A DNA stretch of 64,000 bases, taken from positions 480,001-544,000 of the forward strand of contig CAVYES010000005.1 of assembly GCA_963767735.1 (NCBI GenBank), read 5' to 3'. This DNA is from Candidatus Bathyarchaeota archaeon. GTDB taxonomy: Archaea; Thermoproteota; Bathyarchaeia; Bathyarchaeales; Bathycorpusculaceae. The notes beneath the pieces are model-generated. The model was given only the letters and a program-made list of their open reading frames with translations. It had not been told where the DNA came from and made no database searches. The first letter of the stretch is position 1. The number at the start of each line of letters is the position of its first letter. Shown piece by piece: positions 5,539 to 23,217 of the stretch. Both the position numbers and the translations under genes were made by a program.

Positions 5539-8298
5539 TTAGATTTCGTTGTTGCTAGGGAAAGGTTGAGGTAACTTCCCTGATTCTACGCTTGAATAGC
5601 CTTCTTTCTTCTTAACGGAATACACAACGTCAGCCACTTCTTCTATTTCGCTATGATGAGTAATTATAAGCATTTGTGGAATTATTCTGCCGCCTTCCCT
5701 AAAAAACGAGTTCAAAATGTTCACCAGTTCCTTGCGTCTTTCCTCATCCAGGTGCGTCGTGGGCTCATCCATAATAACAGTCTCAATCCTGCCGGACAGT
5801 ACCTGAGCAATGGCCAACCTTAGAGCTATTGCCAGAGCAACACGTTCACCCCCACTGATCTGATCGATATCTTGTTCTCCCGAAGGCCCTAATACACTAA
5901 TGTTGTAGTCATCATCAATTTTAATGTCGGAATAAGCAAGATTAAACCTTTCAAACAAGTCTCGTGTAGTTTTCTCAAGAAGAGGTCTAGCTCTAGCGCG
6001 AATCATCTTTTGAATGCCATCCTTGCCATAAGCATCTCTAATTTTGTTCAAAACGATGATGTAATTGTCCACCATTTTCTTTTCTGCGGCTTTTGCTTCA
6101 AGAACTTTAAGCTCTTCTCTATGTCTCTGTGCCTCATCTTCTGCGCTGATTTTGGCCTGCTCAGTTGCTGCAATATCTGCTGTAAAATTCTTCACTTCTT
6201 GGTTCTTGTACTTATAACCATCTTGCTTCGTTGAATGTTCTTTTTCATCATAGCCAAGGTCTTCTAACGCTCGAGTTGTTTTAGAATATTCATCTTTGCA
6301 GTTCCCTAACTCTTTTGAGGTTGATGTTACGCTTGATTCGTATTCAGCCTTTCTTTTCGCAATTGGGAGATTTTGATCGTACTGTTCTTTTATTTTTCTT
6401 AGTCTAACTAGCTCTTTTTGAGGTTCATTAGGTTCATGACCGAGTTTCTCAACCGATAGCGCAAGTGTTTTAGCGACTTCTTGAAGCGCTATACTCAAAG
6501 GTTTCTTTTCTTGTTCGATTGCTTCCTCAGCGGGCATTTTGTCCAGTTGTCGTTTTGCCAATTCATACTCCCTGTAAGAATAATCAAAGGCACCTTTTTC
6601 GCCTTCCACACACTTCAACTCTTCATCAATAGTCGCTAGCATTTCAACCTGATTCTCAAACTTTGAAATCTCCAACTTCGCGCTAGCAACCTCGTTTGAT
6701 GCTTCCGATAGCTCTAATGCCAGGCTCTCTAGCCTTCCAGAGTCAAGAGCATCAATCTGCTTCTTTTTTTCATAAATTTTGTCTCTTTCTCTTTCTGTCT
6801 CCTGAGACTTTATCTTTAATGCAGCAACGTCGTCATTCGCCACTCTTCGGTCCAAAGTATACTTGTTTATCAACTGTGCAACTCGTTCAGGAGACAACTC
6901 GGTGTCACACGTTGGACAGGCCTTAACCTCACTCTCGCTTGAAAATTTCAACAGGTTTTCATCCAATTCCTTAAGACTCTGATTCAAAACACCAATAGCT
7001 GAAGCATTAGCCTTGACTTTTACGTCAAATTCCTTTGCCTTATCCTCCAATCTCTTCTTAACCTTTTCGAGGACTAATCCAATGTTATAAATGGAAACTG
7101 TTTCTTCAAGGGCAGCACAATATTTTGCGATTTCTCCACTCAGGCGCTCATTCCTTCGCTTCTCCTCCTTTTCGCATTTTGCCAGCTCCTTCTTCGCCTT
7201 GACTAACGCCGTATCCGAACCTTCGAACTCTTTGCGGTCGCCTTTTTTCTCGATTAGCAGTTTTTCTTTTTCAAGGAAAAGCGCGTGGTCTTTCGCGTTT
7301 TCTTCTAAAGTCTTTTTGAGTGCCATTAATTCGTCTAGCTTGGTTTGAAGTGCACTTTGTTTGAGTTCTAAGCTATTCTTTTCGGCAAGACAATTTACAT
7401 ATGCGTCCAGAAAAGGAAGCCTATTGACGTTTCCTTCAAGAGTGATTATTATTTCTGTGGCTGAAACAGCTTTTCTGAGTTCCTCTTCCTCTTTTTTCAG
7501 TTTGCCCTCCAAATGTTCAATTCTCTGTCCAGTGATTCCTCTTTCTTTGTCAATCTTGTCAAAGTCTTTCTTCATAGCTGCTAGTTTCTCTAAGTCGGCT
7601 TCAAGATTCTTCAGCTCGCAATCAAGCACCCCTAACTTTTTCTTCTTAGATTCTAGCTGACCGCTGAGTTCTTTCATTCTACCTTCAGCTTGATCTTTTT
7701 GTTTTTCAACAATAGGTTTGCGTGCAAGTTCAGTTTCAAGTTTTATCTGATTATTGACATATTCCTGAATTACGGTTTTCATGCCGTTCCAGGCTCTATC
7801 TAGATCCTCAACTCCGAGTAATCTGGAGATGAGCTCTTTTCTGTCTCCTGGTCTCGCAGTGACAAGTTTTTCGATTTCACCTTGCCTAACGTAAACTGAC
7901 TGCATAAACATGTTTTTATCAATGCCAAGAATTTTCTGGACTTCAGGAACAACAGATCGCTCGCCACCTCTAACCAGCAGATTCTTCTTGTCTCCATCTA
8001 ATCGATATAGACTACCCTTGGCAGCGCCCTTTCGCTCCATTATCCAGTCACTTTCATAACCGATTCCGCCTTCCGTGAAGGCCAAACAAACTTTGCACTT
8101 ATCGGCCTTGGAATTGATGAGATTCTCTTTCTTTCCACGACTACTGCTATCACTGAACAAAGCGAAGCTTATACCGTCCAAAATCGAAGTCTTGCCAGAC
8201 CCGTTGGGTCCGACAATAACGTTGATGCCATAGCCTAACTCCAGCTCGGTTTTTTTATGCGAAATGAAATTTTCAAGCCTAATCTTGTTAAGAATCAT
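5539..8298 (-). CDS. rad50: DNA double-strand break repair ATPase Rad50
   Basis: Walker A GPNGSGKT, Q-loop VRQGE, coiled coil with CPTC zinc hook, ISGGE signature, MDEPT Walker B, ITHH. Confidence 0.95.
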   Translation of the reverse strand: MILNKIRLENFISHKKTELELGYGINVIVGPNGSGKTSILDGISFALFSDSSSRGKKENLINSKADKCKVCLAFTEGGIGYESDWIMERKGAAKGSLYRLDGDKKNLLVRGGERSVVPEVQKILGIDKNMFMQSVYVRQGEIEKLVTARPGDRKELISRLLGVEDLDRAWNGMKTVIQEYVNNQIKLETELARKPIVEKQKDQAEGRMKELSGQLESKKKKLGVLDCELKNLEADLEKLAAMKKDFDKIDKERGITGQRIEHLEGKLKKEEEELRKAVSATEIIITLEGNVNRLPFLDAYVNCLAEKNSLELKQSALQTKLDELMALKKTLEENAKDHALFLEKEKLLIEKKGDRKEFEGSDTALVKAKKELAKCEKEEKRRNERLSGEIAKYCAALEETVSIYNIGLVLEKVKKRLEDKAKEFDVKVKANASAIGVLNQSLKELDENLLKFSSESEVKACPTCDTELSPERVAQLINKYTLDRRVANDDVAALKIKSQETERERDKIYEKKKQIDALDSGRLESLALELSEASNEVASAKLEISKFENQVEMLATIDEELKCVEGEKGAFDYSYREYELAKRQLDKMPAEEAIEQEKKPLSIALQEVAKTLALSVEKLGHEPNEPQKELVRLRKIKEQYDQNLPIAKRKAEYESSVTSTSKELGNCKDEYSKTTRALEDLGYDEKEHSTKQDGYKYKNQEVKNFTADIAATEQAKISAEDEAQRHREELKVLEAKAAEKKMVDNYIIVLNKIRDAYGKDGIQKMIRARARPLLEKTTRDLFERFNLAYSDIKIDDDYNISVLGPSGEQDIDQISGGERVALAIALRLAIAQVLSGRIETVIMDEPTTHLDEERRKELVNILNSFFREGGRIIPQMLIITHHSEIEEVADVVYSVKKKEGYSSVESGKLPQPFPSNNEI

Positions 8299-9479
8299 GC
8301 CGTCTTCACTTTCTGGAAATATTCATCCGCAATTTTCTGAGCTTCATCAGAATCCCCAACCCTCAGATACTTCCACATCTCCAAAGCAAGCCCAGCCACC
8401 TTCTCGTCCTTGAAGAAGCTCTGAATAACCTGATTGACATTAAACGACCCAGCTTTCAATTCGGGTAATCTCATTTCCGAATCCTCCAAAATCTCAGGCC
8501 TAAAGCCCAAAACAACGTCAGCCAAAGCCCGAGTCAAAATCTGATGGACACTCTGTCTATCAATGTCTTTGCCCTCAACAACCACATGGACAAGAGGCAA
8601 CTTCAACATGCCTTCAAAAGTCTTAACCAGTTCCCTCAGGCTATCCTCAAAATGAACATAATTTAGCTTTACATCAACCTGTGGCCTAATACACTCAAGA
8701 TTAACATCTCTAACCTCGACATCATCGCCCTCAAGATCCACGAGGAAAAAGCCCTTTCCAATTTTCTTCCAACCGCTGATCTCAGTTCTGCTAATAATCT
8801 CCGAAGAACCCGGATAAGCCAGCTCACCCCCGCCAAAGGAAGCTTTAATCCGCTGGTGAAGATGCCCCATAGCAACGTAATCAAAATTTCGTGGAATCTC
8901 ATCTAAACAGACCTCAAAGGCGCCCTCAAAAGGCAAAAACTTGTCAATAGCTTCATGAAGCAGAAGAATTCCGCTTTTGCCATCCAACTGAAGGCCTCCA
9001 AGTTTCTTAAGTTCCTCCAGAAGTAACGGGCGATAGGTCCTGCTTAGATTAGACAACCCCGCAACCAAAACATCTTTTCCACCAATTTTCACCTGTTGAT
9101 GTTGAGCAGTTCCCCCAACACCAAGAATCTGCATTTGATCCTCAAAAAGCACATGAGGCGCCACACCACGACTTTTAGGTCTATCATGATCGCCCAACAC
9201 AGCAAAAACCTTAGCCTTTCCATCCAGCTTAGAGAGAAACCTCTTGAAAGCCCGGTACGCCTGTGGCGGAGGTCTTGGCGAATCAAAAAGATCCCCACAG
9301 TGAACAACAATATCCACATGCTCCTCAAGAATTTTATTGCCGATCTCATCTAAAGCGTCATAAATGTCCTTTTCCCGCTCATCCAAATTGTACTGTTTGT
9401 AACCAAGATGGGTGTCTGCCAGATGCGCAATTCTAACCATACTATTGCTTATCCTCCGCTGTGAAGCCTTCGAGTTCAT
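8295..9479 (-). CDS. mre11: DNA repair nuclease Mre11 (likely start ATG 9440)
   Basis: HLADTHLG, GDLFD, GDHD, LLHE, MGHLH, YPGS motifs. Overlaps the rad50 start. Confidence 0.93.
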   Translation of the reverse strand: MNSKASQRRISNSMVRIAHLADTHLGYKQYNLDEREKDIYDALDEIGNKILEEHVDIVVHCGDLFDSPRPPPQAYRAFKRFLSKLDGKAKVFAVLGDHDRPKSRGVAPHVLFEDQMQILGVGGTAQHQQVKIGGKDVLVAGLSNLSRTYRPLLLEELKKLGGLQLDGKSGILLLHEAIDKFLPFEGAFEVCLDEIPRNFDYVAMGHLHQRIKASFGGGELAYPGSSEIISRTEISGWKKIGKGFFLVDLEGDDVEVRDVNLECIRPQVDVKLNYVHFEDSLRELVKTFEGMLKLPLVHVVVEGKDIDRQSVHQILTRALADVVLGFRPEILEDSEMRLPELKAGSFNVNQVIQSFFKDEKVAGLALEMWKYLRVGDSDEAQKIADEYFQKVKTA

Positions 9480-11061
9480 CTCTCAAGCGTTTACTCTGGT
9501 TCTCAGAGGTCTCCTCATTCGCTTTCTCAATGGCCGACTTCATCTTGCTAACTATGTCAATGTCGCTGCCGCCTTCACGAGTCCGCCGACGCTTAACCTT
9601 TACCATAACAGGCGCTCTAGTCATCTCTCCGACAAGCACAGCTTCCCCTGTGTTAAGTCCAGGCAGATCTTCAAGTAAACTCTGCCCTAAGCGTTCCGAA
9701 CTTCTTGCAATCGCTAGTTGGTCGTCAGGATTGGTCATCCGCATAACAATCTGACTGTTGCACTGACTCAAAGCATCAGGATGAATCTTTGAAGGCCGCT
9801 GAGTAATCACAACCAAGAATACGCCAAACTTTCTGCCTTCCGCCGCAATCTTCTTAATAATTCGACTAGATTTTGTGTTGCCTTGAAAAGGAATAAACCG
9901 GTGCGCCTCTTCCACAAAAACAAAAACCGGAAATGGAAACTCGCCGTTAGAAACTTGATCATAAATATCCGATAGCAGCCTAAACGCAATGTAATCCGCA
10001 ACTTCGTCACTTAAACCTGAAAGATCAACATCAGACAAATGCCTGGGCCTAAGCAAAGCGTCAATACCCGTAGAAACGGAAGTGAATACATGCATCTTCA
10101 CAATTTGTTTAACATATTTCTGAGCAGATTTAGCACCTGCAATCTTGTTTTTTTCTACACCTTTTTCTTTCCAGCCATCAGCCTTCAGCTCTTCAAGCAA
10201 ATCCTCAGGCTGAAAAACATCTTTCTTTGCCCTCAAGTATTCAATTGCCTGCTCTAATCCTTCCTGGATATTAGTCATGTTCTTGCCAATATTTGCAATA
10301 AGGCAAATCTCATCAACGTCCAAGTCTGAGAAGCATATTTCATAAGGCTCAACCTTGCCAACTTCCCCCTCAGAGTATCTCCCAGTGCTCGCAGGGTTTC
10401 TGAATATAGTAATTCGGTCAGAAAGTTCATGTCTCTTGCCATCTGCGTTTCTTCCCAAAAACACATAGTCCGCATGTGGATCCAACATTACAATAGTTCC
10501 TCCCTTGGCAAGTAATTCATCAGCGAGAATGCCGGCAAGATACGTCTTCCCCGAACCCGTCTGTGCTAAAAGCGCCAAATGCCTTCTAAACCCTTTAATC
10601 GAAAGCGCCACAGGAACCTCGCTGCGAGTAATCAAACTGCCCACTGCTATTGATTCGTCGATTGGATACGAATAAAACTTCTCAAGCAACTCCGTTGGAG
10701 CAATATAAACGGGCTTTCCTGGAGTGATGGCTTTCTTAGGCAACTGAAGCTCACCTGAATCAGTTAAGAAACCAAGAACTCTTGCTCGCCCCCAAACCTT
10801 GCTGTCCGCAAGGCCTGACTCAATAATCTTTTTGATAATTTCAAAATTCAACTCTTTCGTCAAGGCCTGACTCGCTGACATAACTCTCTCAATCTGAGCA
10901 ATCACTTGAACCTGCTTCATCTGCCCATCCAACTCTTCTTCCGAATAGATCATCAAATACTCCCAACGCGACGGCATCTCACTGGGTTTAGAAGAAAAAT
11001 CAAAAGAAACTGAATTTGCCTCGCCGATTATTATTCCAACTTCTTTAAGGGAACCTGACAC
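9442..11061 (-). CDS. herA: HerA helicase/translocase
   Basis: N-terminal HAS barrel, HLALLAQTGSGKT, DPHADY, EEAHRF, EGRKFG, ITQRP. Confidence 0.93.
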   Translation of the reverse strand: MSGSLKEVGIIIGEANSVSFDFSSKPSEMPSRWEYLMIYSEEELDGQMKQVQVIAQIERVMSASQALTKELNFEIIKKIIESGLADSKVWGRARVLGFLTDSGELQLPKKAITPGKPVYIAPTELLEKFYSYPIDESIAVGSLITRSEVPVALSIKGFRRHLALLAQTGSGKTYLAGILADELLAKGGTIVMLDPHADYVFLGRNADGKRHELSDRITIFRNPASTGRYSEGEVGKVEPYEICFSDLDVDEICLIANIGKNMTNIQEGLEQAIEYLRAKKDVFQPEDLLEELKADGWKEKGVEKNKIAGAKSAQKYVKQIVKMHVFTSVSTGIDALLRPRHLSDVDLSGLSDEVADYIAFRLLSDIYDQVSNGEFPFPVFVFVEEAHRFIPFQGNTKSSRIIKKIAAEGRKFGVFLVVITQRPSKIHPDALSQCNSQIVMRMTNPDDQLAIARSSERLGQSLLEDLPGLNTGEAVLVGEMTRAPVMVKVKRRRTREGGSDIDIVSKMKSAIEKANEETSENQSKRLRDELEGFTAEDKQ

Positions 11062-12379
11062 GTCTATAACTCCTTCCGCGAATTATTTTCTCCCCGAACA
11101 ACTTTTCCATATAGGGGACATAGATATTATCAACCGTTTTCTTCTTAAGCCTGACTCTCTCGTCAACATTCTTCAGCCAAAAGTTGTGACAATCCAACCC
11201 ACAGTAACCCGTTGCCAAAACCTTCAAGGCCCCCTCCAAATCCAAAGTCGCTGGCTTATGCCAACCAACATCAACTAGCTTTTGATCCCAAAAAGGAATA
11301 TCAATTCTAATAGGGGAATCACGCCTGTCAAACAAAACATAAAAAGACGCAATAGCGGGAAACTCTGGAATCCCCGCAATAACCTGCGCCGCCTCATCCA
11401 CAAAACCCTTACCCACCTCTCTAAGGGTGTTCGGAAAATTCTTCCTCACATAAGACTTCGGATCTGAACGCGATTCCTCCAACCTCCTAGCCAACCGCGG
11501 TGAAGGCCCAAGAAGCAAAGGCTTAGTGTAGCCCACTGACCCAGAAAAATTCATGACCAGCTGGTAATCAGGCCTAGAACGCGCCAACTCATCAAAAACC
11601 AATCTAATCGTTTCCAACTTCTCGCCATACTTCTGCCTAAAACGCTCAAACTTATGCAACCCCAAAGTCGAGTTGTCCACAACCTCCATAAAAAGAGGCT
11701 TCAACATCCGAGCATCATCATCCTCAATTTCCAATCTCTTCAGATCCTCCCTAAAAATCAGGCTCAACAAATAATCCCTGAAAGAAGTGGACCGGCTCTC
11801 CTTGGCAACACCAAGCAAGAGAACATTGTTCTTTCTGCACAGATCAAGCAACTCTCGATAAACTTTGAAATAATCGAGAAGTATCAAACGCTCCTCTTCC
11901 ACCTTGGACTCAAGCGGAACATGCACCAACCGCCCAAAAAGTGAACCATCAATCAAAATCATGCCACACCCCAGACCGCTCTTCAAAGCATCTATAGCAA
12001 CCTGAAACTCCAGCATCTCCATTTTAACCGAAATAAACTCTCGCTCAGCAACAGAACCGCCTTTAGAGAAAAAGACGTCACTCTCAAGCCGCTTATGCTC
12101 TATTTCCCTGCAAACCGCTAAAGAACGGACAACATAGAAAACGCCTCCAGTTGAAAGCAGATTCGAGTAAACACTAGAATCAACAGCCATAACACTCAAT
12201 TCAGCCAAACTTGCACCAAGCTTCGCTGGATCACTTATTTCAACCCAAAAAGAAGGAAACTTTTCTCTAAAACGATTTGCCAACGGATTTGGCGTACCCT
12301 TCAAGACCTTATCTTTTACTGCATCTTTCTTGGGTGCTAAAGAAGCGGCAAACTCATCAAGAAACTCAGGCATAAACAT
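11045..12379 (-). CDS. nurA: NurA 5'-3' nuclease
   Basis: MAVDSS and ILIDGSL acidic motifs, GVAKES, C-terminal L..VDERV. Overlaps herA. Confidence 0.85.
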   Translation of the reverse strand: MFMPEFLDEFAASLAPKKDAVKDKVLKGTPNPLANRFREKFPSFWVEISDPAKLGASLAELSVMAVDSSVYSNLLSTGGVFYVVRSLAVCREIEHKRLESDVFFSKGGSVAEREFISVKMEMLEFQVAIDALKSGLGCGMILIDGSLFGRLVHVPLESKVEEERLILLDYFKVYRELLDLCRKNNVLLLGVAKESRSTSFRDYLLSLIFREDLKRLEIEDDDARMLKPLFMEVVDNSTLGLHKFERFRQKYGEKLETIRLVFDELARSRPDYQLVMNFSGSVGYTKPLLLGPSPRLARRLEESRSDPKSYVRKNFPNTLREVGKGFVDEAAQVIAGIPEFPAIASFYVLFDRRDSPIRIDIPFWDQKLVDVGWHKPATLDLEGALKVLATGYCGLDCHNFWLKNVDERVRLKKKTVDNIYVPYMEKLFGEKIIRGRSYRRVRFP

Positions 12380-12495
12380 ACCAACCTTAAGTCATTACAC
12401 ATTGTTGAAACAGAATACTACCGATTATAATTTAAGCGTATTTTCGTTTATGCTCACGCAATAAGCGGCATTTTTCTATCTCTTGAGTTCCGAAT

Positions 12496-13097
12496 TTACT
12501 GTGCTATTTGGCATTCTTTGTAATCTGCGAGGCAAGACTTTTTCCATTCAGAAGGCGTAAAAATCAGCCCTCGCTTAGAGAATGAATTAAACCTTTTTCC
12601 AACATTTATCATGATTTGGTGTTCAGTTACAATCGTGTCAAAGTCGAAACTTGATATTATCTTTACGCTCCCTTGAAATAATGCCCATAATTTTCATCAA
12701 CTGGAACAAAGGAGACTTTTCCTCTCAAGCGTTCGATCGGCAAGGTCTTATTCATTCTTGTTATGTTTTTCAAATAGACCCCATGATTCAAATCTATATA
12801 TTGTTCGTGAGATAATCTGTCAATCTCATCTTTGCATAGGGTAACAAACACAGAAGCAAGTGCAGCTGTCCCAAGAAACCGTTTTCCAAATTCTCCAATT
12901 AAATAGAAAACAATCCCATCATTTTCTTTTAAAGAACTTATGTTTGCCACTTTCCGCCCGTCAGAAGTATATTCTCGTAATCCCCAAAAGCCCTCAAGTA
13001 TCCTATGGTTGTAAATTTCAATCCCTTTTCTGTGATATTTCTTATTTTGGTCGTCCTTGACATTAAAAATCAAGAAATCTACCAATTGTTTTAACAC
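12496..13097 (-). CDS. EVE/PUA-like putative modified-base binding protein (apparent frameshift ~12677)
   Basis: FWGL...ISSLKENDGIVFY...FLGTA pattern. ORF 12663-13097 continues in another frame as QGSVKIISSFDFDTI to a stop at 12496. Confidence 0.55.
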
Positions 13098-14778
13098 AGC
13101 TTTTCTTAATCATAATAGTCTCAAAAATTTTCCCATGGATAGGCATTTTTTCTAAATCATGCGGCTCAAATTTCATGAGTCCACCAGCATATAACCGATA
13201 TCCCGATTCTTTTTGAACCCAATCAGCAACAGAAAAGTTCAGAACCTTGGTCAGTTCAACCAAGTCTTTAACAGAATATTTTTCTGGAAAATTAAGATAG
13301 ACTCCAAGCAGATTGGTAAGGATATGCACACGTGCTTCATTCACGACGAATTTTGGTATTCCTCTAAACATATAAGTAAATAGCAAATCAGGAGCCCTTT
13401 TTGGTGTCTTTACACTATACCAAGGATCCCTTGCTTTTGACGTAGCCAAAGTATGTAGTCCGAGCGCTTCTCCATCTCTAATATATTGCTTCAGAGTACC
13501 ATGCAAGTCATCAAATTTTATTTTTGAATCTATTGTAAGTAGATAGCATTGCTTTTTTTGTTTGCTGAAATTGTCCATTCTGTCATTGGTAAGAATTGCA
13601 TCGATGAAATCAATAGAAACCTTTGTAGGCATTATTTTTCTTAACCACTTTTGTGGAATAGCAAGTGAGGAAACAGAATCTTCTGTGAGTATGAAAAAAG
13701 CATTCGCTCCTGTTGATATGCCTCGATGGACTGAGGCTAAATCCTTTAACGTAATCGCATTCCTTTTCTTAGTTGCCACTTCTTCAGGTAATTTGGTTTC
13801 AGCTTTTTCCTCTACTGACTCAAAAAATATTACACTCGCAGCAGAATTAACAGCAAGTGATTGGGAAAAATCTCTTCTACTCAAAGGTCCGATAAAATAA
13901 TCATTTCTATCATTATAGATACCCATTTCGTCTATCGAAAACCTTCTTTCGAGACTTGAAAATAGTTTTGAGCCATACCCTGTTCGTCTCATCTCCGAAG
14001 GTAAAATAAAAGCCATTTTTCCTTTGTCGATAAAAGTTGCGGATCTGGCTAAGAAATACGAATGAAGCCCAGCAAGATTCGTTAGCCCGAGCAATTTGCT
14101 CGTTCGGTTTCTTTTTCCAAGTCTGTGAAACCTAACAAACGGTGGGTTAGAAATAATCACATCAAATTTGCTTATGCAAAGTTGTTCAAAATCGGTCCTC
14201 GATAATTCTAAGAAATTGCTATAAAAAATTTTCCATGAACATGGAGCCTTAACCCAGTCAAGGGATAAAGCGGCAGAGAGAGCAAGAAGGGGATCATTTT
14301 CCACGCCAATATAATGCATGGAGTCAGCAATTTCAGGATAAGACTTCAAAATCATAGTTGGAAAGATACCTGTTCCTGTTCCGGGTTCCAATATATTTTG
14401 TCCGTTCTTCAAAGCTAAGCGGTTGATGGTTTCTATCGCAACTTTTTGAGGAGTAAAATATTGTCCATGGTTTTTTCTATATTTTAATTCGGTAGCGTGT
14501 TCAAACAAAAAACTCAGTGTACTCGATATTTCAAAAGGGTTTGGCGTGGTTTTATGAAAAAGTTGCAACATATCTTGAAGATCTCGGGTAAACACCTTTG
14601 CGGGAAACGTCGGACAACAGACAATTCGATTAAGCGTACTATTTGTGCTTAGAGCAAGGAGCATTTGAGGGAGTAACCATTTGTCTTTTTCAACAAACCC
14701 TGTTAGTTCTATCAAAGAGCGATTTGCACCATTATTCTTGAAGGTTGTTGTCATTTTATGGCTCTTCCAAAACACCAT
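13063..14778 (-). CDS. N6-adenine DNA methyltransferase, gamma class with C-terminal TRD (likely start ATG 14754)
   Basis: GQYFTP (motif X), EPGTGTG (I), GVENDP (II), ISNPPF (IV), RGISTGAN.FF TRD-type motif. Confidence 0.9.
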   Translation of the reverse strand: MVFWKSHKMTTTFKNNGANRSLIELTGFVEKDKWLLPQMLLALSTNSTLNRIVCCPTFPAKVFTRDLQDMLQLFHKTTPNPFEISSTLSFLFEHATELKYRKNHGQYFTPQKVAIETINRLALKNGQNILEPGTGTGIFPTMILKSYPEIADSMHYIGVENDPLLALSAALSLDWVKAPCSWKIFYSNFLELSRTDFEQLCISKFDVIISNPPFVRFHRLGKRNRTSKLLGLTNLAGLHSYFLARSATFIDKGKMAFILPSEMRRTGYGSKLFSSLERRFSIDEMGIYNDRNDYFIGPLSRRDFSQSLAVNSAASVIFFESVEEKAETKLPEEVATKKRNAITLKDLASVHRGISTGANAFFILTEDSVSSLAIPQKWLRKIMPTKVSIDFIDAILTNDRMDNFSKQKKQCYLLTIDSKIKFDDLHGTLKQYIRDGEALGLHTLATSKARDPWYSVKTPKRAPDLLFTYMFRGIPKFVVNEARVHILTNLLGVYLNFPEKYSVKDLVELTKVLNFSVADWVQKESGYRLYAGGLMKFEPHDLEKMPIHGKIFETIMIKKSCVKTIGRFLDF

Positions 14779-17581
14779 CTATTATTTCCAAGAGCTTAGT
14801 CTGATTTACACAATAGTGAAGCCATTGACGCAGATCAGGATGACAAAGGATCCTAACAGGAGAAACTGATTCAAGAAGTGCGTCCTGTGCTTTATTTAGA
14901 CTCTCTGCTTCAGAAGGCAGTGTGCTTGGGTGATAATAGGTTTTCCTTTCAAGCTCTGGCATGTAAATTAAAGGACGCTCAGCATTAATTCGTTCTACAT
15001 TAGGAATGTCGACTAATATTGCAAGCTTATCTGAAAATACTTTTTCGATATCATCTGGGCATGAAAGGGATTTTGTCTGTATCTCTGAGGCTTTTTTCTC
15101 GATCAGTTCTTTAATACTTGATTGGATTTTTTCACTCAGTTCTACCCTTTTTGGCCAAGGTAATGCATTAAGGGTATTAATTAGCTTCTTATTGTGATCG
15201 TTACGAGGTATCGTTAAGACTCTTTTGTATAGTTCTCTTTTTTGGATCATGTTGATGAGAGCTATTCCACGGGAATCATCAGATAAGCCTTTTATCCATT
15301 CGAGCATAAGCCAATCTGTCCATGAAATGCCGGGATACCAATGTTTATCTTGAGAAACGTGAGGCTTATCCGCTTCTAACATTTTGAACGCATCATTGGA
15401 TTGTTTTTTGCCCTCAACGACTTCTTTAGAAATAGAAGATTTCTTAGAAATTTCAGTATTCCAGGCTAAGTTCTCAAAAGGTGGAGTGAGGTTCATTAGG
15501 AAAGTAATCAGTCTTGCTCTAATTCGCTTTATCTCGTTCTCTCCAGCTGTTGTGAATACTTCATCGGGCAAGAGCATGGTGGTAGCATATTGCAGCATTG
15601 CTTTCGAGATTCGAGAAGTATGATGCCAGTAGACAGAGGAATAAAGAAGATATCGAGCGAGACTGAATGCATCTGCACTCGCGCGACCTTTTTCATAAAC
15701 GCCAATCGTTACTTTGTGCTTAGCTCTTAAATGCTCAGGTATGGGAACAGCTGTTATGACTCTCAGTAACCGTTCAATGTCAAGTTGGCTCCCGTAAGGA
15801 ACTCGGCATTGAGCTGAATCTCTTATTATGTAGTCAGCCTTATCTGCGTCTATAGGTCCATCGATTAAAGCTGAAAGCATATCCGCTTTGAAGTCTCTGG
15901 TTTCTGATTCACCTAACTGACGACCTGAGTGTGCCCTGAGAATCTTCTTTAAGCAACTTAAGTTAACATTCCAACAATCTTTTCCCTCAATTATTTCAGC
16001 CAGAGTTCTGCCATCATCATCTTGTTTTGGATTTGATAGCAACTCAATCGAAATGCTGGAATGCCCAAAAATCTTTGGGACTACCTCACCAAGGTCATGA
16101 GCAAGAGGAAATTGCCCAAGGTCATGTACGAGTGCTGCAATTAGAACACCCTTAAGATATTGTTCGTCTACCACATTACGGAAGATGGGGTTTTGAGAGT
16201 CATGGAATAAAGCATTAACATAATTGGCAGTGTACGTATAAGCACCAAGGACATGATCGTATCGGGAATGATCAGCGGTTGGATAAACCAAAGAGACAAG
16301 ACCCAATTGGCTTATCATTTTTAACCTAGCAAGCAAAGGATGTTCAAGAAGCTTTCTCAATCGAGGAGTAATGACCGTATTTAAGTTGGGAACAACTCTT
16401 ACCACATTTTTAGCATAGATTCCTAATTCTGCGATTTTATCTTCAGGATTCCATGATCCAAGTTCTTTCTCGAGATCAATTAATACATCGTATAAATCAC
16501 TATAGAATATTGTTTTGTAGTCATATGATTGAAGACCAGGGAATGTCTCAGTTAATAAGTCTTGATCAACTAATCCCGTTTGGCTCCTTTTGCTTTCATT
16601 GGCTCCATTTAGAAGTCTTGTTGCAAGAAAATGTATGGAACGGAAAAGTGGTCTTTGGGGAAAATCATTTCTATGAGATTCAGAAATTATTGATAGTAAT
16701 TCTAAAATTGATTTTCCGATCGCGTAGTAATCCAAGTCTTTGGTAAGTTCTTTTCCTTTTACACCGCATCTAACTCTATTTGAAGATGATTTATCTAAGA
16801 ACTTTTCCTTTAGTCGAGGATCGGCGTAATAACGAGTAACAAAAACCTCAAATGATTCATTACTTTCAGGATTAATCTTTTGTGCCGATCCATAATCTAT
16901 TAAGAATAGATGCCCTTCTCTATCCAAAAGTGCGTTATCTGGTTTAACATCAAGATAGATGTAGCCTTTTTGATGGGTGTAAATAAGTGCTGATATCCAT
17001 TGATGTATCGCAAATATCAATTTCCTCATTGAATCATCAATGGCTTCCGGAGATATTTGGGCTTGATCTGAAAGTGCTAAAGATAGAGCATATTTTTTCA
17101 GCGTGACATTACCTTGTATGAAAGGCATTACTATGAAGGATAAAGAACGAAATTTATCACTGGCAACTTCAAAGTGGCCCACATCTAACGCTTGGATTAT
17201 ATTTGCGTGATTAAAAAGTGGAAGGATCTTACGCTCAGTCTCGACCATCGATGTAGGTTGACCATCTATTACAGGAAGCAGTTCTGGGGCTAAGGGTCGA
17301 TTAAACTTTAGAACGAGTTCTTGGCAAGAGATATTTCTGTGAATAGCCTTGAAAACAACGCCACTCCCACCCACAAAAAGTGGGGAAGTCATCGTACAGA
17401 TAGAATAATGGTTGATGTTAATCTGTTCATAAAGTGTTTTTAGGTACTCGACGAGGTAATTTTTTTCTTGCTCAAATTCCTTTTGCCTTTTTTCACCATA
17501 CAACTTTTTGATCTCTTCAAGCCAACGGTCGATCTCCGTTAATTTGTCCTTGTTTGGAACATCTACATGCGATTCAGCCAT
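14756..17581 (-). CDS. Fusion: Ser/Thr protein kinase + SAMHD1-like HD phosphohydrolase
   Basis: Kinase: GGSGVV, VLK, YLDVKPDN, DYG, DYYAIG. HD domain: RLKMISQLG, HSRYDHVLG, HDLG.FPLAH, DADKADYIIRD, VYWH. Confidence 0.88.
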   Translation of the reverse strand: MAESHVDVPNKDKLTEIDRWLEEIKKLYGEKRQKEFEQEKNYLVEYLKTLYEQININHYSICTMTSPLFVGGSGVVFKAIHRNISCQELVLKFNRPLAPELLPVIDGQPTSMVETERKILPLFNHANIIQALDVGHFEVASDKFRSLSFIVMPFIQGNVTLKKYALSLALSDQAQISPEAIDDSMRKLIFAIHQWISALIYTHQKGYIYLDVKPDNALLDREGHLFLIDYGSAQKINPESNESFEVFVTRYYADPRLKEKFLDKSSSNRVRCGVKGKELTKDLDYYAIGKSILELLSIISESHRNDFPQRPLFRSIHFLATRLLNGANESKRSQTGLVDQDLLTETFPGLQSYDYKTIFYSDLYDVLIDLEKELGSWNPEDKIAELGIYAKNVVRVVPNLNTVITPRLRKLLEHPLLARLKMISQLGLVSLVYPTADHSRYDHVLGAYTYTANYVNALFHDSQNPIFRNVVDEQYLKGVLIAALVHDLGQFPLAHDLGEVVPKIFGHSSISIELLSNPKQDDDGRTLAEIIEGKDCWNVNLSCLKKILRAHSGRQLGESETRDFKADMLSALIDGPIDADKADYIIRDSAQCRVPYGSQLDIERLLRVITAVPIPEHLRAKHKVTIGVYEKGRASADAFSLARYLLYSSVYWHHTSRISKAMLQYATTMLLPDEVFTTAGENEIKRIRARLITFLMNLTPPFENLAWNTEISKKSSISKEVVEGKKQSNDAFKMLEADKPHVSQDKHWYPGISWTDWLMLEWIKGLSDDSRGIALINMIQKRELYKRVLTIPRNDHNKKLINTLNALPWPKRVELSEKIQSSIKELIEKKASEIQTKSLSCPDDIEKVFSDKLAILVDIPNVERINAERPLIYMPELERKTYYHPSTLPSEAESLNKAQDALLESVSPVRILCHPDLRQWLHYCVNQTKLLEIIDGVLEEP

Positions 17582-17738
17582 TTTGATCCCCCTTAGACAG
17601 TCAATTTGTTGGATCTTACCTATATCTTATGCGCAAATCTGATATACGGAGGGGACCGTTTTGGAATTATGCAAAAACTTACACAGCACTTGCACAATCT
17701 AAGACTTTCTTTGCCTCTAAAAGGAGTCATAGCAAATT

Positions 17739-18686
17739 ATGGGTTTTAATAAGAAACTTAAAATTACGAACACAGAAGACTATGTTAAACACTTAACAAT
17801 TATCGAAGACATTGCTTATGTAAAATTGATTAGACACATAATCGCTCAACTTAAAAGTGAGCAAAAAATTGGAAAAGGTATCACCGTTTTTGGCAGATTG
17901 ATTTATTTAACGTTGCCGTGGGATGCGACAATTATAGGGGACATTCACGGAGATCTAAAAAGTTTGGTTCGTATATTAGATGGTAGCCTGTTTTTTAGAA
18001 GCGATAACTCTTATCTAATATTTTTAGGGGATTATGGGGACAGGGGCCTTTATTCACCTGAGGTTATTGCTGTTGTTCTAAGGCTGAAAGAGGCATTCCC
18101 CGACAGGGTCATAATGTTGCGAGGCAATCATGAAGGACCACAAGATATGATTCCGTTCCCCTACGATTTACCAATGCAATTTCAACAAAAATATGGATTG
18201 GAAAATGGGAACAAAATTGTGGTCGAACTACGCAAACTCTTTGATTATCTCTACAATATCGCGATAATAAAGGACAAGGCGGTACTAATTCACGGAGGGT
18301 TCCCGAGCGAAGCAAATAGTATACAGGATGTGGCTTTTGCTCATAAGAATTTTGAAAATACAAATATGGAAGAAATGCTTTGGAGTGATCCTCATGATTG
18401 CGTAAGATTGACCAAATCATCCCCTTGCGGGTCTGGCAAATTTTTTGGCAAGGAGATTACTGAGAGGTTTCTCAAAATGCTTAGTGTTAACGTTCTAATT
18501 CGCGGACATGAATATTGCAAAGAAGGTTTTAAAATTAACCATGACGGAAAAGTATTAACTTTATTTTCAAATATAGGGTCCCATTATGGTAGCAAGCAGG
18601 CGGCATATCTAGAACTTAAGACAACTGATAAATTTGAAAATGCATTCGGGCTCGAAAAAAATATTAGAATTTTAAAGGATGATTAA
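17739..18686 (+). CDS. PPP-family Ser/Thr protein phosphatase
   Basis: GDIHG, GDYGDRG, LRGNHE, HGG, LWSDP, IRGHE, TLFS signature motifs. Confidence 0.93.
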   Translation: MGFNKKLKITNTEDYVKHLTIIEDIAYVKLIRHIIAQLKSEQKIGKGITVFGRLIYLTLPWDATIIGDIHGDLKSLVRILDGSLFFRSDNSYLIFLGDYGDRGLYSPEVIAVVLRLKEAFPDRVIMLRGNHEGPQDMIPFPYDLPMQFQQKYGLENGNKIVVELRKLFDYLYNIAIIKDKAVLIHGGFPSEANSIQDVAFAHKNFENTNMEEMLWSDPHDCVRLTKSSPCGSGKFFGKEITERFLKMLSVNVLIRGHEYCKEGFKINHDGKVLTLFSNIGSHYGSKQAAYLELKTTDKFENAFGLEKNIRILKDD

Positions 18687-18999
18687 TAATCTAAGTGTGG
18701 AGTAATGCTGAAATCGCTATTAGCTAGGGCATGTTTTGGTTTAATGCGTTGACCTCATCAGTTACGGGGAAGCGCTCAGTGCGAAGAAAGGAATTCCCTA
18801 TGTCGTAAACGCGATTTAATTTGAAAAACGCATTTTTGATTAAAAACGTTTTTATGAAATAGGATCTTCGTATCTTCACACCGAAGGTTTTTCTAAATGA
18901 AGTTTTGACACCGCGTAATTATCGCGATTTTTATGACTCGCCCTCTAGAATTAATCGTTTTAATACTTGAATCGATTCCGCAGAGAGACATTAGACGAA

Positions 19000-20583
19000 T
19001 TAGTCTAACTCTATGAGGTTAATCACTTCGTTAATGTTTGAAAAATAGATATCTTTCCTTGTGGTTGCTATAACAATTTGTGTGAAATTGTTTCTTAATT
19101 CGCTTAAGAGATTTAGAAACTTCTTGATTCGTTTTTCGTCGAAGCAAATTATAGGGTCCTCCAGAATTAGTAGATTATTTTGTCCTAATTCTTCCAATGT
19201 GCCAATTCTTATAAGCATATTCAGGAAACCTTTTTCGCCTGCGCTCAATACATCAAAGTCTGTTTCTACATCACTATTTTTGAACTTAGCCATGACTTGA
19301 TCTTCTGTAATTTTAAGATCGATGCCTACGTCTATTTTGCCCAAATACCTGTTTACTCGTTCAGCAATTCGTTTAAGAGTTATTGAGATTGTAGAATCCA
19401 TGGCGGTAACTGCTAAATTTCTTAGAGATTCAGAAATTAGATTTTCTTTTTTGTAGTTTTCCAAATCGAGAGTGTAACTTTCAAGTAGCAGCTTTGTTTT
19501 CTCTTGTTCTCTTAAGAATGTGGATGTCAAAGCTAAATCATGTGAGATACGTTCAAGCCTTGAAATATGAACTACAATGTTTTTGCGCTCTTCATCTAAT
19601 TGATATGATAATTTCATTCTTTTCTCAGATAGATTATCTTGGGCATCTTTTTGATAAGCGATTATTTGATCTATGAATTTTTTGAAGTCTTGAGTTTGAT
19701 TCAAAAAAAGGTTGCTTCTACTTTGGTATTCCCCGTAAAAGTCATTCATATACTTGTCTTCAAAGAGTTTTTTGAATTTATCATCAGAAAAAAGAAATCG
19801 AATTTTCTGTTCAAAGCGGTCAATTTGTTTTAATTCATTTTCTATGTCTGCTATTGATTTAGCTCTTTCTCTTTCCTTAACTTCTTCAGCAATTTTCATG
19901 TCCTCCAGTCTTCTCAGGGTTGCTTGTTTTACTTCTAACTCGCCATCTAATTTGCTCTGTTCTTCTTCAAGTTCTGCTATTTTTTTATCTGTAATACTTA
20001 TTTCAGCCAATTGCTTTTCTGATTTGCTAACCATGTCGTTAAGAAGAGATTGTTTTGATTTTAGGTATATCGAGAATGATTTCATGTTATCTAAAACCAT
20101 TTGAGGATTCCACTGAAGACGATAAGCTGATAATATTTGACGGAATCTTTGCTGATTTAAGTCAGCCAAGTCTTGTCTTAGGTTATCGATAAACATTAGC
20201 TCATAGAATACATCCTTAGAAGGGAGATTCTTGTCGATTTTTGACAAATCTGTTACTGAGATTTCTTTGCCGTTAAAAATCGTTTTTTGGTTCGCAATGC
20301 TGTTAGATAGCCTTATTTCTCGCGATATCTCAAGTTTTTTAGAGTTTGACATTGTTAGGCTAACGGTAGCAAGATTTGATCTACCTCTAAGACCATAATG
20401 TAAATTGTCTCGTAAATTAGTACCTGAAATGGGCTCGCCATAAATGGCATAACCGATTGCATCAAGAATAGTGCTCTTCCCAGAGCCGTTTAACCCCATG
20501 ATCAAATTTATTCCTGGCTTGAAAGAGAATTGCGCTTCTTCAAATTTTCTATATCCTTTAAATCGAATACTTTCCACAATCAT
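19000..20583 (-). CDS. Short Rad50/SMC-like ABC ATPase without zinc hook
   Basis: GLNGSGKS Walker A, coiled coil, LSAGE signature, atypical LILEDP Walker B. Confidence 0.8.
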   Translation of the reverse strand: MIVESIRFKGYRKFEEAQFSFKPGINLIMGLNGSGKSTILDAIGYAIYGEPISGTNLRDNLHYGLRGRSNLATVSLTMSNSKKLEISREIRLSNSIANQKTIFNGKEISVTDLSKIDKNLPSKDVFYELMFIDNLRQDLADLNQQRFRQILSAYRLQWNPQMVLDNMKSFSIYLKSKQSLLNDMVSKSEKQLAEISITDKKIAELEEEQSKLDGELEVKQATLRRLEDMKIAEEVKERERAKSIADIENELKQIDRFEQKIRFLFSDDKFKKLFEDKYMNDFYGEYQSRSNLFLNQTQDFKKFIDQIIAYQKDAQDNLSEKRMKLSYQLDEERKNIVVHISRLERISHDLALTSTFLREQEKTKLLLESYTLDLENYKKENLISESLRNLAVTAMDSTISITLKRIAERVNRYLGKIDVGIDLKITEDQVMAKFKNSDVETDFDVLSAGEKGFLNMLIRIGTLEELGQNNLLILEDPIICFDEKRIKKFLNLLSELRNNFTQIVIATTRKDIYFSNINEVINLIELD

Positions 20584-20771
20584 AGAATTCTCTCCAATAA
20601 TGCCATATTTTTATGAATAATTTTGTCAGCTTCCTCAATTTCGCCTTTGTTTAGGGCGTTAATGTAAGCCGACATTATATCCGCAATTTCCTTTCTTTTG
20701 TTCTCAGGGATTTCCGGTAATTTTTCCTGAAGAATTGACAATAGAAGACTCTGGAAACTAAATTCGCTCAT
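20580..20771 (-). CDS. small helical protein (63 aa)
   Basis: 4-nt ATGA overlaps with both neighbours, indicating translational coupling. Confidence 0.7.
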   Translation of the reverse strand: MSEFSFQSLLLSILQEKLPEIPENKRKEIADIMSAYINALNKGEIEEADKIIHKNMALLERIL

Positions 20772-21971
20772 CTAAGACACTCCTTTATTTTTGCCATAAT
20801 ATTATCAATTGTACCCTGGTTATCGAGAAAAATTGTTTTTATCTCAATGCCATTAGCACTTGATATTTCTTGGATTTTTTCTTCAACTGCTTGTTTATTC
20901 TGATCCGCAATGTTAACAACAAAATTCATTTTTATGCTTGGATTTTTCAAATTAGCCACTTTCTCAATTTTGCCATTTATATCAGTAATGTCACTTGCGG
21001 AAAGTCTGTCACTGAATGCGCGATCTTTAGTTTCAAATATTACTAAATTATTCGAGTAAGCCGCTAGAACATCCGCTTCGATGGTAATTCCGCCTGAAGA
21101 CAGGAGCGCGTTCAATAGACGACTCGAACAACCTGCTTTTTCAAGCGTTAAAAAAATGTACGATTCAAACCAATTTCCATTCTTAAAAAAATTAACAAAA
21201 TTCTCTCTCGCTTCTTCTATTGACGAGAAACCCTTCTTATCGAAAACCTTTGTTCCCAAAAATAGATCATGAATATTTCGAGGGAGTGGATCCAATGCAG
21301 CTACTTGTTCTGGTCTGTAGGCCCTAACCAGATTTAACGTATTTGTTCTTTGTTGAATATTGGATAATTCTTTTAGAAACGTAGTCATTCCAGGAAAACG
21401 AAGAATTTTTTTATTGAGTTCTATCCTCTCATCTTGACTATAGCTGATATTAACTCCATTAGCCAATGTCATATATTCATCAAAATTGTCCTCAAAAACA
21501 GGTGGCGGGCCGTCAGCAATTAAGTCAAAGGCTTTTTTTAAGCAATCTGTTATTGCATGTTCTTTTTGGCTGTTCTCGGAAATATATTCATAATGTGCAG
21601 TCAACCGGCTTATTAAGGCTAACATGTTTGATTCTATACTTAAAAGAGCCGTTGAAATTGCTGCCTCATTATTATGCACTATTCCTGCAATAATCGCATT
21701 GGCTTGACCATCCACCCTTCTTGCCTAGATCTGCACAACTGTTAGCAAGTGTAACTTCGTCCGTTTCTATGTTGACTATATCAATTAGCTCTTTGGTTTT
21801 TATAGGTAAAGATAATCTTATAACTTCTGTATTTCTAAGAAAGTCACTTAACTTAATTTGTTTTGTCTGATATTTGGAGAATTCAAACCCTAAATTTGAA
21901 TATAGACTAACAATTGGAGGTATTCTATTTAGGATTGAATTGAGTAGTGGCATTGGCTTACTATTTTGCAC
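20768..21971 (-). CDS. PD-(D/E)xK nuclease (Card1/DUF1887-like C-terminal domain); ORFs 21672-21971 and 20768-21715 probably one gene split at ~21725
   Basis: GNWFESYI...EADVL...IFETKD. Removing one G at CTAGG joins the frames as ...SCADL-ARRVDGQANA... Confidence 0.65.
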
Positions 21972-22362
21972 TGCAAATGCTTTTAAGTTATTTGTTCCGC
22001 ATAGCCATCTAAACCTTTCGGGTTCAAATCGACACAGACTAATGCCTGTTAAAAAGATTCATAAAAATGCAAAAACGCAACGACGGTTTAAACGACGGCT
22101 TCAAGTTAACCCCTGCACCCTCATAAGTTAAAAAGGCCTATGGTCCAGCTGGTGATGCTTAGATTTTTTTCGCACGTTAGACTTTTCTTTTTCGGAAGAT
22201 TTTAGCGTCTTCAAATTCTGTGACGTATTCCATTCAAAACGGCTATAATCCCTAGCTGCCTTAGGGAAAAGGAGCTGAAGATTCTGACTGATACGATAAT
22301 TTTTCTTTGAAAGACAACATGCTGCAAATTTTTCAGGTGCAGGAGTAAGGTCATAGGTAAAA

Positions 22363-22725
22363 ATGAACTTGGAGCTTTTTCATCGTCGAAAACAGCTTTT
22401 AGCCGCTTATTACAGCGGTATCTTAAATCCGGCTTCCATGCGTGTGCTTGCGGAGCAGTATCATTGTAGCCAGGCAGCGCTATATGCGGATTGGGAGCGT
22501 CGGGCGAAATGGGAGCCTTTCATCTGGGCAAGCCAAGAAGCTCACGAAGACGGCAAAGCTTTACTTTTTCAACTGCAGCTTGCCCGTGAAGCAGCTTTGA
22601 GTCATATGCTAAATCCGCGGATAGGCGAGGGTGTAAGGGTCGGCGCCATTGGCCAATTTACTAAAGCAGTTAAAACAGAGATTGAGATGAGGCAGAGCCT
22701 TGGCTTGCTGCCAAAGGTAACTTAA
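22363..22725 (+). CDS. HTH protein resembling virus/MGE terminase-small-subunit-like proteins, possibly truncated
   Basis: N-terminal HTH-like LAEQYHCSQAALYADW and C-terminal QSLGLLPK. Resemblance is from memory only. Confidence 0.4.
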   Translation: MNLELFHRRKQLLAAYYSGILNPASMRVLAEQYHCSQAALYADWERRAKWEPFIWASQEAHEDGKALLFQLQLAREAALSHMLNPRIGEGVRVGAIGQFTKAVKTEIEMRQSLGLLPKVT

Positions 22726-22859
22726 CCTCCGCAAGTGCAGGTAAAGCAGCAGTAAACTTTGATGCCCAACAGAACCAGAAATCCAGCAATCGGGGGCGCA
22801 GGAACACTCTCAGAAATCGCTTACGCATGGTCACTAAAACGATTGTAATAGCTTTCGAC

Positions 22860-23207: not shown

Positions 23208-23217
23208 CGGTTCTCAA

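Follow-up and report, generated by a model that had tools for sequence, protein, structure and literature searches.

A Ser/Thr kinase fused to a SAMHD1-like HD domain forms a mobile, possibly antiviral, module with an adenine methyltransferase in archaea and bacteria

What would a prokaryote do with a SAMHD1-like protein that carries its own protein kinase? The question is raised by a gene in a 64,000-nucleotide stretch of DNA from a Candidatus Bathyarchaeota archaeon (assembly GCA_963767735.1, contig CAVYES010000005.1, positions 480,001 to 544,000; hereafter the window). Its product, P0001, joins a Hanks-type Ser/Thr kinase to a SAMHD1-like HD domain, as had been noted from the sequence (the original prediction), together with altered residues in the HD active site. 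We found that the kinase-HD gene and a translationally coupled DNA methyltransferase gene downstream of it form a mobile module, of which a phosphatase related to protein phosphatase 2A (PP2A) is a third member in a subset of loci that includes the window. This conserved kinase-HD and methyltransferase operon, with or without the PP2A-like phosphatase, is the main new point. The near-obligate operon and the recurrent phosphatase, both missing from the original prediction, are also the strongest clue to function. We see an even balance of probability that the module is an undescribed, horizontally mobile, methylation-linked antiviral defence system whose effector is a phospho-regulated (deoxy)nucleoside triphosphate ((d)NTP) hydrolase. 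We favour this reading because the module is a rare two-gene unit that crosses domains of life, because its methyltransferase is coupled to the kinase-HD gene, and because it is located in defence islands and on a conjugative element.

The partner gene encodes a methyltransferase (P0002) whose start overlaps the kinase-HD stop by 23 bp in the window. P0002 matches the Pfam families Eco57I, N6_Mtase and M_Eco57I_C and the PADLOC model MTase_II (1.3e-45). A profile search linked it to the DNA adenine methylases M.BseCI (3.6e-15) and CamA, while a single-sequence phmmer search returned no PDB match. We compared 46 loci (the window, 8 from species-representative genomes and 37 from metagenomes), merged into 36 groups at 95% or higher kinase-HD identity. 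The full-length loci in genomes were found by an alignment-based contig scan; a single-protein scan found none. The methyltransferase lies directly downstream of the kinase-HD gene in 42 of the 46 loci, or 34 of the 36 groups, and the stop and start overlap by 4 bp in 13 of 23 kinase-HD/methyltransferase pairs. The two genes are inherited together: their identity matrices correlate with a Mantel r of 0.91 (0 of 2,000 permutations as high), although kinship alone would also yield some correlation. No other gene is kept next to the kinase-HD gene across the loci, and a search of the 300 other genomes of the class turned up only distant methyltransferases (27-34% identity). A predicted complex of the methyltransferase with kinase-HD residues 1-400 scored 0.00 (mark 0.32), which counts neither way.

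The two remaining groups lack a visible partner for different reasons. In one (L004), the sequence ends 2 bp past the gene. The other (L003/L045, corresponding to genome G111, which is 95% complete) is truly without it: such a methyltransferase was found neither beside the kinase-HD gene nor elsewhere in that genome. The G111 kinase-HD is intact and retains all motifs, and, since every catalytic residue is present in the alignment, we reject the idea that this lineage has a dead enzyme. The kinase-HD is therefore not obligatorily lethal without the methyltransferase.

This last point bears on whether the pair is a selfish addiction unit, similar to a toxin-antitoxin pair, in which a toxic kinase-HD is neutralised by the methyltransferase and maintained by post-segregational killing, with no protection against viruses. 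Near-obligate pairing and translational coupling would suit such a unit. There is also a precedent in Pgl, whose methyltransferase, kinase and ATPase were described as resembling a toxin/antitoxin set in the portion of the source consulted (PMC4365076). A frameshift interrupts the kinase-HD frame in 5 of the 46 loci (L005, L036, L050, L059 and L065), and the methyltransferase is intact in all four of these in which it is visible, a pattern that also fits addiction. In a further locus (L060:3-2823), an inverted methyltransferase fragment takes the place of the kinase half. These frameshifts and the L060 structure may be assembly errors, decay or rearrangement. Given the intact, unpartnered kinase-HD of G111 and the possibility that the frameshifts are assembly errors, we consider an addiction pair very improbable; addiction and defence are, moreover, not exclusive.

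A third gene stands on the other side of the kinase-HD gene in the window. Its product (P0003) carries the motifs GDIHGD, GDYGDRG, GNHE, LWSDP and RGHE, and among proteins of solved structure it is closest to the PP2A catalytic subunit (7.6e-30), PP5 and PP1. Relatives of this phosphatase accompany the module in 6 of the 36 groups (the window, L002, L032, L041, L063 and L065). They are placed in three ways: upstream and divergent, upstream and co-directional, or 3' of the methyltransferase gene. In the window, the region between the divergent genes presumably holds promoters for both.

Is the fusion itself real? The frame runs from its ATG through all 941 codons without a stop or frameshift between the domains, both halves are recognised by profile, sequence and fold matches, and all the motifs quoted in the original prediction lie at defined positions. 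These are GGSGVV (residues 71-76), LVLKFNRP (89-96, with Lys92), YLDVKPDN (209-216) and IDYGS (228-232) in the kinase half, and ADHSRYDH (436-443), HDLGQFPLAHDL (486-497), FGHSS (505-509) and DADKADYIIRD (578-588) in the HD half. A search of 5.8 billion proteins returned 256 matches, and the best 120 of the 256 make up the listed set. Most of these 120 are 930-1000 amino acids long, cover 95-100% of the query and share 40-63% identity with it. Among the matches listed are more than 100 independent full-length homologues of the fusion (40-63% identity), and the named ones of the best 120 come from metagenome-assembled genomes of Bathyarchaeia and Nitrososphaerota. The family has no name in the databases queried. 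The fused superfamily is large, with 827 clusters at 50% identity matching the family profile at E <= 1e-30, and ESM Atlas clusters that combine Pkinase and HD_assoc_2 occur in Acidobacteriota and Actinomycetota. Some relatives (P0005, P0011, P0087, P0104, P0117, P0121 and P0122; 564-663 amino acids, up to 82% identical) comprise the HD half only; they may be genuinely without a kinase, one part of a split gene or the product of a miscalled start.

The original prediction had named two findings that would overturn it, an assembly chimera and an inactive HD domain not conserved under selection. The same architecture recurs across the 120 listed homologues and a further 45 fetched loci, drawn from many independent assemblies, which far exceeds what chance would give. 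Contigs from four public metagenome runs over positions 12,500-19,000 are all identical to the window, without joints or loose ends, and one of them spans the junction between the kinase-HD and methyltransferase genes. These contigs are short (151-404 bp) and cover parts of that interval only, and no single read-derived piece covers the whole gene; nothing was found that favours an artefact. Mean pairwise identity over 23 non-redundant kinase-HD/methyltransferase pairs is 0.64 in the HD core, 0.47 in the kinase, 0.42 in the C-terminal lobe and 0.26 in the first 60 residues, making the HD core the most conserved region of the protein. Because the architecture recurs, the catalytic residues are conserved and the HD core is the best preserved part, we consider the artefact readings, a chimera and a decaying pseudogene whose HD half is inactive, refuted for practical purposes, with a negligible chance of being correct.

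The distribution of the fusion is patchy. Full-length copies occur in 2 of 301 genomes of the class Bathyarchaeia (G000 and G111), where four further matches are HD-only proteins (28-36% identity), and in none of the 14 other genomes of the genus. The 8 loci from species-representative genomes comprise three from Bathyarchaeia or Bathyarchaeota, three from Acidobacteriota, one from Hydrogenedentota and one Burkholderiaceae contig. The genome containing the window also encodes a separate HD-only paralogue of 428 amino acids. For positions 1-20,000, 19 of 20 same-genus genomes lack any long match (the sole match, 7759-11175, is in one genome), whereas positions 20,001-40,000 are matched in 20 of 20; the kinase-HD gene therefore sits in a variable island. 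This island contains part of a DrmD-like helicase, a TmtA-like protein, a Rad50/Mre11/HerA/NurA cluster, an SMC-like ATPase and a CARF/Csx1-like protein.

Neighbours were inspected in 15 loci (the window and 14 others), selected by size and closeness and not blindly. Defence or mobile genes lie near the module in 9 of the 15, namely the window, L001 (type I restriction-modification), L005 (a second methyltransferase and Z1), L007 (Cas1 and PolB), L041 (full TmtA), L043 (HEPN-STAND-HD-CE), L046 (TrwC relaxase and coupling protein), L059 (restriction endonuclease-like HATPase) and L063 (IetA-like AAA protein). Other neighbours are a GH99-like protein (L006), a histidine kinase (L053) and an Fe-S oxidoreductase (L003). 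In L046 (2-4127), a TrwB-type coupling protein and the TrwC relaxase are directly upstream of the kinase-HD gene, indicating that this copy of the module rides a conjugative element. In L007 (14576-20942, Acidobacteriaceae), the module is flanked by Cas1 (515 amino acids) and a family-B DNA polymerase-like protein (961 amino acids), a casposon-like pair.

The anatomy of the module in the window is given in Table 1, in which structural assignments rest partly on AlphaFold models.

Table 1. Coordinates of the module and of the parts of its kinase-HD protein in the window
Feature	Position	Strand	Details
Kinase-HD fusion gene (P0001)	14756..17581	-	941 amino acids, one open reading frame, ATG start
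N-terminal helical hairpin, residues 1-60	17402..17581	-	AF2 helices 11-28 and 33-56
Hanks-type Ser/Thr kinase domain, residues 61-325	16607..17401	-	Pfam, alignment, fold
Conserved linker between kinase and HD, residues 326-400	16382..16606	-	alignment, model
SAMHD1/EF1143-type HD core, residues 401-700	15482..16381	-	sequence, fold, conservation
Variable low-confidence insert, residues 705-745	15347..15469	-	predicted local distance difference test score (pLDDT) <50, poorly aligned columns
C-terminal lobe, residues 746-941	14759..15346	-	part of EF1143/SAMHD1 fold
Gamma-class N6-adenine DNA methyltransferase (P0002)	13063..14778	-	571 amino acids; EPGTGTG at 131, NPPF at 211
Intergenic region between kinase-HD and phosphatase genes	17582..17738	.	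157 bp
PPP-family (PP2A/PP5/PP1-like) Ser/Thr phosphatase (P0003)	17739..18686	+	315 amino acids, divergent from kinase-HD

The kinase half follows an N-terminal hairpin that has no Pfam match and is the fastest-evolving part of the protein. Pfam Pkinase (PF00069) matches residues 71-297 (E 2.9e-18, 66.7 bits against a cut-off of 31.7). In an alignment of 33 full-length homologues (41-63% identity), on which the invariant positions given here are based, G71, G72, K92, E116, D211, K213 and N216 are invariant, and D229 and G231 are nearly so (at least 90% conserved). We take these to be the Gly-rich loop (G71/G72), the ATP-anchoring Lys92, the alphaC glutamate (E116), the catalytic-loop residues D211, K213 and N216, and the DFG-type aspartate D229. 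The earlier impression that the catalytic residues are intact thus holds, and judged by its residues the domain looks like a catalytically complete, active-type Hanks Ser/Thr kinase. The full-length AlphaFold model (pLDDT 76.6) consists of the N-terminal hairpin, the kinase fold, the linker and a mainly helical second half. Since a Foldseek search with this whole model returned only eukaryotic-type kinases (ERK2, CDKs and p38), residues 385-941 were folded separately.

The resulting model of the HD half (557 residues, alignment of 60 sequences) has a pLDDT of 85.9 and a predicted template modelling (TM) score of 0.86. The comparison with SAMHD1 and EF1143-type dNTPases that had been proposed as a check gave fold matches. 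Foldseek aligned the model to EF1143 (3irh/4lrl; E 6.7e-13, target-normalised TM 0.62-0.67) and many human SAMHD1 entries (target-normalised TM up to 0.69), as well as to BT4208 (2q14) and the C. elegans SAMHD1 orthologue. Sequence searches pointed to the same proteins (2q14 at 9.7e-18, then 2hek, EF1143 (2o6i), C. elegans SAMHD1 and human SAMHD1), and Pfam HD_assoc_2 matches residues 628-675 (46.7 bits against a cut-off of 23.1). The original prediction had suggested that the C-terminal extension of about 250 amino acids could be a sensor or an oligomerisation region. Since the fold alignments extend over about 560 columns, most of the extension can be assigned to the C-terminal lobe that is normal for the EF1143/SAMHD1 fold. 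These alignments and a weak colinear HD_assoc_2 match in the last 252 residues (E 0.052) rule out a new sensor domain there; the lobe may serve in oligomerisation, as it does in SAMHD1. The extension also holds the disordered insert of residues 705-745.

The HD metal ligands are retained, as had been proposed. All 33 aligned homologues keep H443, H486 and D487, and also D578, D580 and D583 of the DADKADY motif; the corresponding motifs of 2q14, 2hek and EF1143 fall at the aligned positions. Further invariant residues are Q490, H495, H507, K581, Y584, R587, D588, Y651, W652, H653 and H654, of which H495 and H507 occupy the positions of the H215- and H233-type histidines of SAMHD1 and align with the histidines of the homologues. 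The two substitutions reported earlier, HDLGQ for HDxGH and GHSS for HE, are both present as Gln490 and Ser508. In profile alignments, the family motif HDlGqyPlAH falls on HDxGHxPxxH of 2q14, 2hek, EF1143 and the C. elegans protein. P0001 thus lacks the His of HDxGH and has Gln490 at the position of human SAMHD1 H210, an equivalence that follows from the numbering of H206/D207 in PMC8177086. According to the parts of the reviews PMC7045340 and PMC8177086 consulted, H210 touches the substrate phosphates, and the H210A mutation disrupts both catalysis and substrate coordination. The Glu that follows the second His in the homologues is replaced by Ser508, at a position that is variable in the family.

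Such changes raise the possibility that the HD domain is not a dNTPase and acts on another substrate, either unmethylated nucleic acid, as the restriction arm of a pair resembling a restriction-modification system, or a signalling nucleotide, with the kinase serving as a regulator or as another effector, the targets of its phosphorylation being viral or host proteins. Of the 120 close homologues listed, 118 carry Gln at position 490; of the other two, one carries His and one lacks a motif match. The nearest unfused relatives (16 loci, mostly Myxococcota/Bradymonadia) all keep the canonical His, 15 of the 16 reading HD[LIV]GHYPFAH. The lost HE after the third His, and a tight methyltransferase pairing that calls for a DNA-directed partner, point the same way. 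Single-gene kinases are known as defence effectors, and PADLOC PD-T4-6 matches span the kinase core of P0001. On the other side, the whole fold and every other catalytic and substrate residue of the triphosphohydrolase family are retained, and no nuclease-type insertion is seen. Position 490 also toggles in the wider fused superfamily: among 135 more distant kinase-HD representatives, it is Gln in 74, His in 36 and Tyr in 3 (22 did not match the pattern). The His of the 16 unfused relatives and the Gln of a fusion only 31% identical (L069) had suggested that Gln490 arose with the kinase fusion, an idea that we dropped given the His in 36 of those 135. The Gln substitution is thus a lineage trait of a tolerant position and not a hallmark of fusion, and it is unlikely to define new chemistry. 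Overall, we rate a different substrate as decidedly unlikely.

How might a defence module of this composition work? The methyltransferase would mark the host's own DNA as self. The HD domain would be the effector, depleting (d)NTPs or a related nucleotide needed by an invading virus. Its activity may be gated through phosphorylation by the fused kinase and reset by the phosphatase, in a manner resembling the control of human SAMHD1 by cyclin-dependent kinase (CDK)-cyclin A and PP2A-B55alpha. Gln490, in place of a phosphate-contacting His, may hold basal activity low or shift the choice of substrate. We infer the enzymatic activities and the defence role in this scheme, together with its trigger and the direction of phospho-control. 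The fully specified version, in which two or three genes make up an immune system in archaea and bacteria, methylation means self and a SAMHD1-like dNTPase is switched by its fused kinase and a PP2A-like phosphatase, is doubtful as a complete package.

Several observations weigh against an antiviral role. The methyltransferase C-terminal (recognition) half has a mean identity of 0.40 compared with 0.42 for the catalytic half, so that no hypervariable recognition domain is seen; diversifying restriction-modification systems differ from this pattern. Neither the kinase-HD nor the methyltransferase contains a recognisable DNA-sensing or nuclease domain, and the HD half (557 amino acids) has no PADLOC match at E <= 0.01, the dGTPase model included. 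No relative was present on the viral contigs searched, and the plasmids searched held no full-length relative, only unfused HD proteins at 26-30% query coverage. G111 keeps an intact kinase-HD without any such methyltransferase. Since H210A disrupts catalysis in SAMHD1 (PMC7045340, in the part consulted), Gln490 could mean a weak or different enzyme. Finally, genes of nucleotide metabolism neighbour the module in 4 of the 15 inspected loci, encoding ribonucleotide reductase (L039), nucleoside deoxyribosyltransferase (L063), phosphoribosylformylglycinamidine (FGAM) synthase (L033) and a dihydroorotate dehydrogenase (DHODH)-like protein (L008), and a metabolic role would fit these neighbours as well. 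In L039 (12511-14409), the start of the ribonucleotide reductase large subunit gene overlaps the methyltransferase stop by 4 bp, so that a dNTP-making enzyme appears to be co-transcribed with a presumed dNTP-degrading one.

These neighbours would fit an accessory unit for nucleotide-pool or replication control, in which a kinase/phosphatase-switched dNTPase tunes dNTP levels and has no part in immunity. The methyltransferase would then link the dNTPase to the state of DNA replication, as Dam and CcrM do, in the service of the host or of a mobile element. The absence of hypervariability in the methyltransferase recognition half and the unpartnered kinase-HD of G111 would fit this account too, and SAMHD1 itself is described as a cell-cycle-regulated dNTP homeostat (PMC7045340, in the part consulted). 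However, the fusion is rare in its class and missing from the rest of its genus, it is spread across domains and located in a variable island, defence or mobile genes are neighbours in 9 of the 15 inspected loci, and the genome already has a separate HD paralogue. We therefore consider a control module unlikely, and a mobile antiviral module remains our preferred reading.

Several features of the window surround the module without being part of it. A 144-residue open reading frame (12663-13097, -) overlaps the end of the methyltransferase gene; it has a non-significant EVE-domain match (E 0.22), could be assigned to no family and is not conserved in the other loci. Positions 1-22300 behave as a variable genomic island whose left border is outside the window. 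The window starts within the gene for a DrmD-like SNF2 helicase, of which it includes the C-terminal part (21-1400, +). Next comes a TmtA-like (Tiamat) protein with 1095 amino acids (the two span 21-4691, +); in the metagenome locus L041, the full TmtA follows the module. A NurA-HerA-Mre11-Rad50 cluster (5539-12379, -) gave PADLOC mad3, mad8 and HerA matches. Its NurA occurs in 1 of 5 same-genus genomes, and a second Mre11-like gene (30% identity) lies elsewhere in the genome; instead of being the housekeeping repair operon, the cluster may represent a copy of accessory or defence type. Three overlapping head-to-tail open reading frames at 19000-21715 (-) encode a CARF/Csx1-like protein (315 amino acids), a 63-residue product and an SMC/AAA ATPase (527 amino acids) with PtuA, GajA and mad3-like matches, possibly another small defence operon. 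Farther along, a short repeat of about 80-150 bp at about 28150-28305 has many copies on several contigs of this genome and in same-genus genomes (78-89% identity). No tRNA was found in the window.

If the module does act in defence, its methyltransferase would be paired not with a nuclease but with a phospho-regulated enzyme that depletes nucleotides. This would represent a new immune logic, in which epigenetic self-marking leads to the loss of nucleotides and not to the cutting of DNA. Control of SAMHD1-type enzymes by a kinase and a phosphatase would then not be an animal invention, and the module would be a hard-wired prokaryotic counterpart of the animal CDK/PP2A-SAMHD1 antiviral axis. 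The system is small and self-contained, with two or three genes, and its Acidobacteriota and Burkholderiaceae members allow tests in laboratory hosts.

The closest functional parallel is human SAMHD1, which, in the part of PMC7045340 consulted, is switched by CDK1/2-cyclin A and PP2A-B55alpha. Both proteins have the HD triphosphohydrolase fold with a C-terminal lobe, and P0001 keeps the metal ligands of SAMHD1 as well as residues of the His215 and His233 type. Both are associated with a Ser/Thr kinase and a PP2A-family phosphatase, an association that is genetic in our case, through fusion and a neighbouring gene. Unlike SAMHD1, the protein described here has its kinase fused in cis, lacks a SAM domain, is partnered by a methyltransferase and carries Gln for H210, and the two share about 16% sequence identity in the fold alignments. 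By sequence and by fold, the HD half is matched best by EF1143 of E. faecalis, BT4208 (2q14) and the Aquifex protein 2hek, in which the motifs follow the same order as in P0001 (R-x-x-H, HD, H, DxDKxDY, Y-x-H). These three differ in being stand-alone proteins of about 370-480 amino acids that keep HDxGH and HE, with no kinase and no known methyltransferase partner.

We compared the module with established defence systems to test for membership. Pgl and type 2 BREX likewise combine methylation-linked defence with a Ser/Thr kinase-effector fusion and a phosphatase-family protein (PMC12839542, in the part consulted). There, PglW is a protein of 1400-1600 amino acids with a NERD nuclease, pseudokinase, kinase and wHTH modules and an inactive STAND domain, and type 2 BREX works with PglX, BrxC, PglZ, BrxD and BrxHI. 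Neither the PglW architecture nor the BrxC, PglZ, BrxD and BrxHI partners are present here, and the PADLOC matches listed (the best 25 of 28 for P0001 and the best 25 of 26 for P0002) include no Pgl or Brx model; membership is ruled out on both counts. MADS (mad1-8) similarly has MAD6 as its kinase and MAD2 as its N6-adenine methyltransferase, together with ATPase-nuclease modules, and HerA- and SMC-like genes with mad8 and mad3 matches lie near the module in the window. PADLOC mad6 and mad2 match the kinase core and the methyltransferase weakly, mad6 over profile positions 62-224 of 659. However, the NCBIfam scores are far below threshold (MAD6 23.5 bits against 460, MAD2 27 bits against 720), and HerA/NurA/Mre11/Rad50 relatives occur in 0 of the 45 other loci, which rules out that the module is part of MADS or of a HerA-NurA-Mre11-Rad50 system. 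As for a type II restriction-modification system, the methyltransferase has the S-adenosylmethionine-binding EPGTGTG and catalytic NPPF motifs; Pfam and PADLOC reveal no nuclease family in the kinase-HD, and no further conserved neighbour could serve as the endonuclease. Full-text literature searches, which covered main texts, found no description of a kinase-HD and methyltransferase system.

Nucleotide depletion is itself a known bacterial defence that operates through HD-superfamily dGTPases, according to the sources consulted in part, and the module would use the same principle, an HD-superfamily dNTPase as antiviral effector. A 2026 survey describes dGTPase domains fused to SAM, TIR, NLR, CARD, death and SIR2 modules (PMC13519002); in its main text, the part covered here, the words kinase and methyltransferase do not occur. 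Membership of the defence dGTPases is ruled out by the missing PADLOC match of the HD half, and the genome's separate HD paralogue matches the PADLOC dGTPase model weakly (E 3.7e-4). As a defence system, the module would be a variation on two known kinds of immunity, nucleotide-depletion defence and methylation-linked defence.

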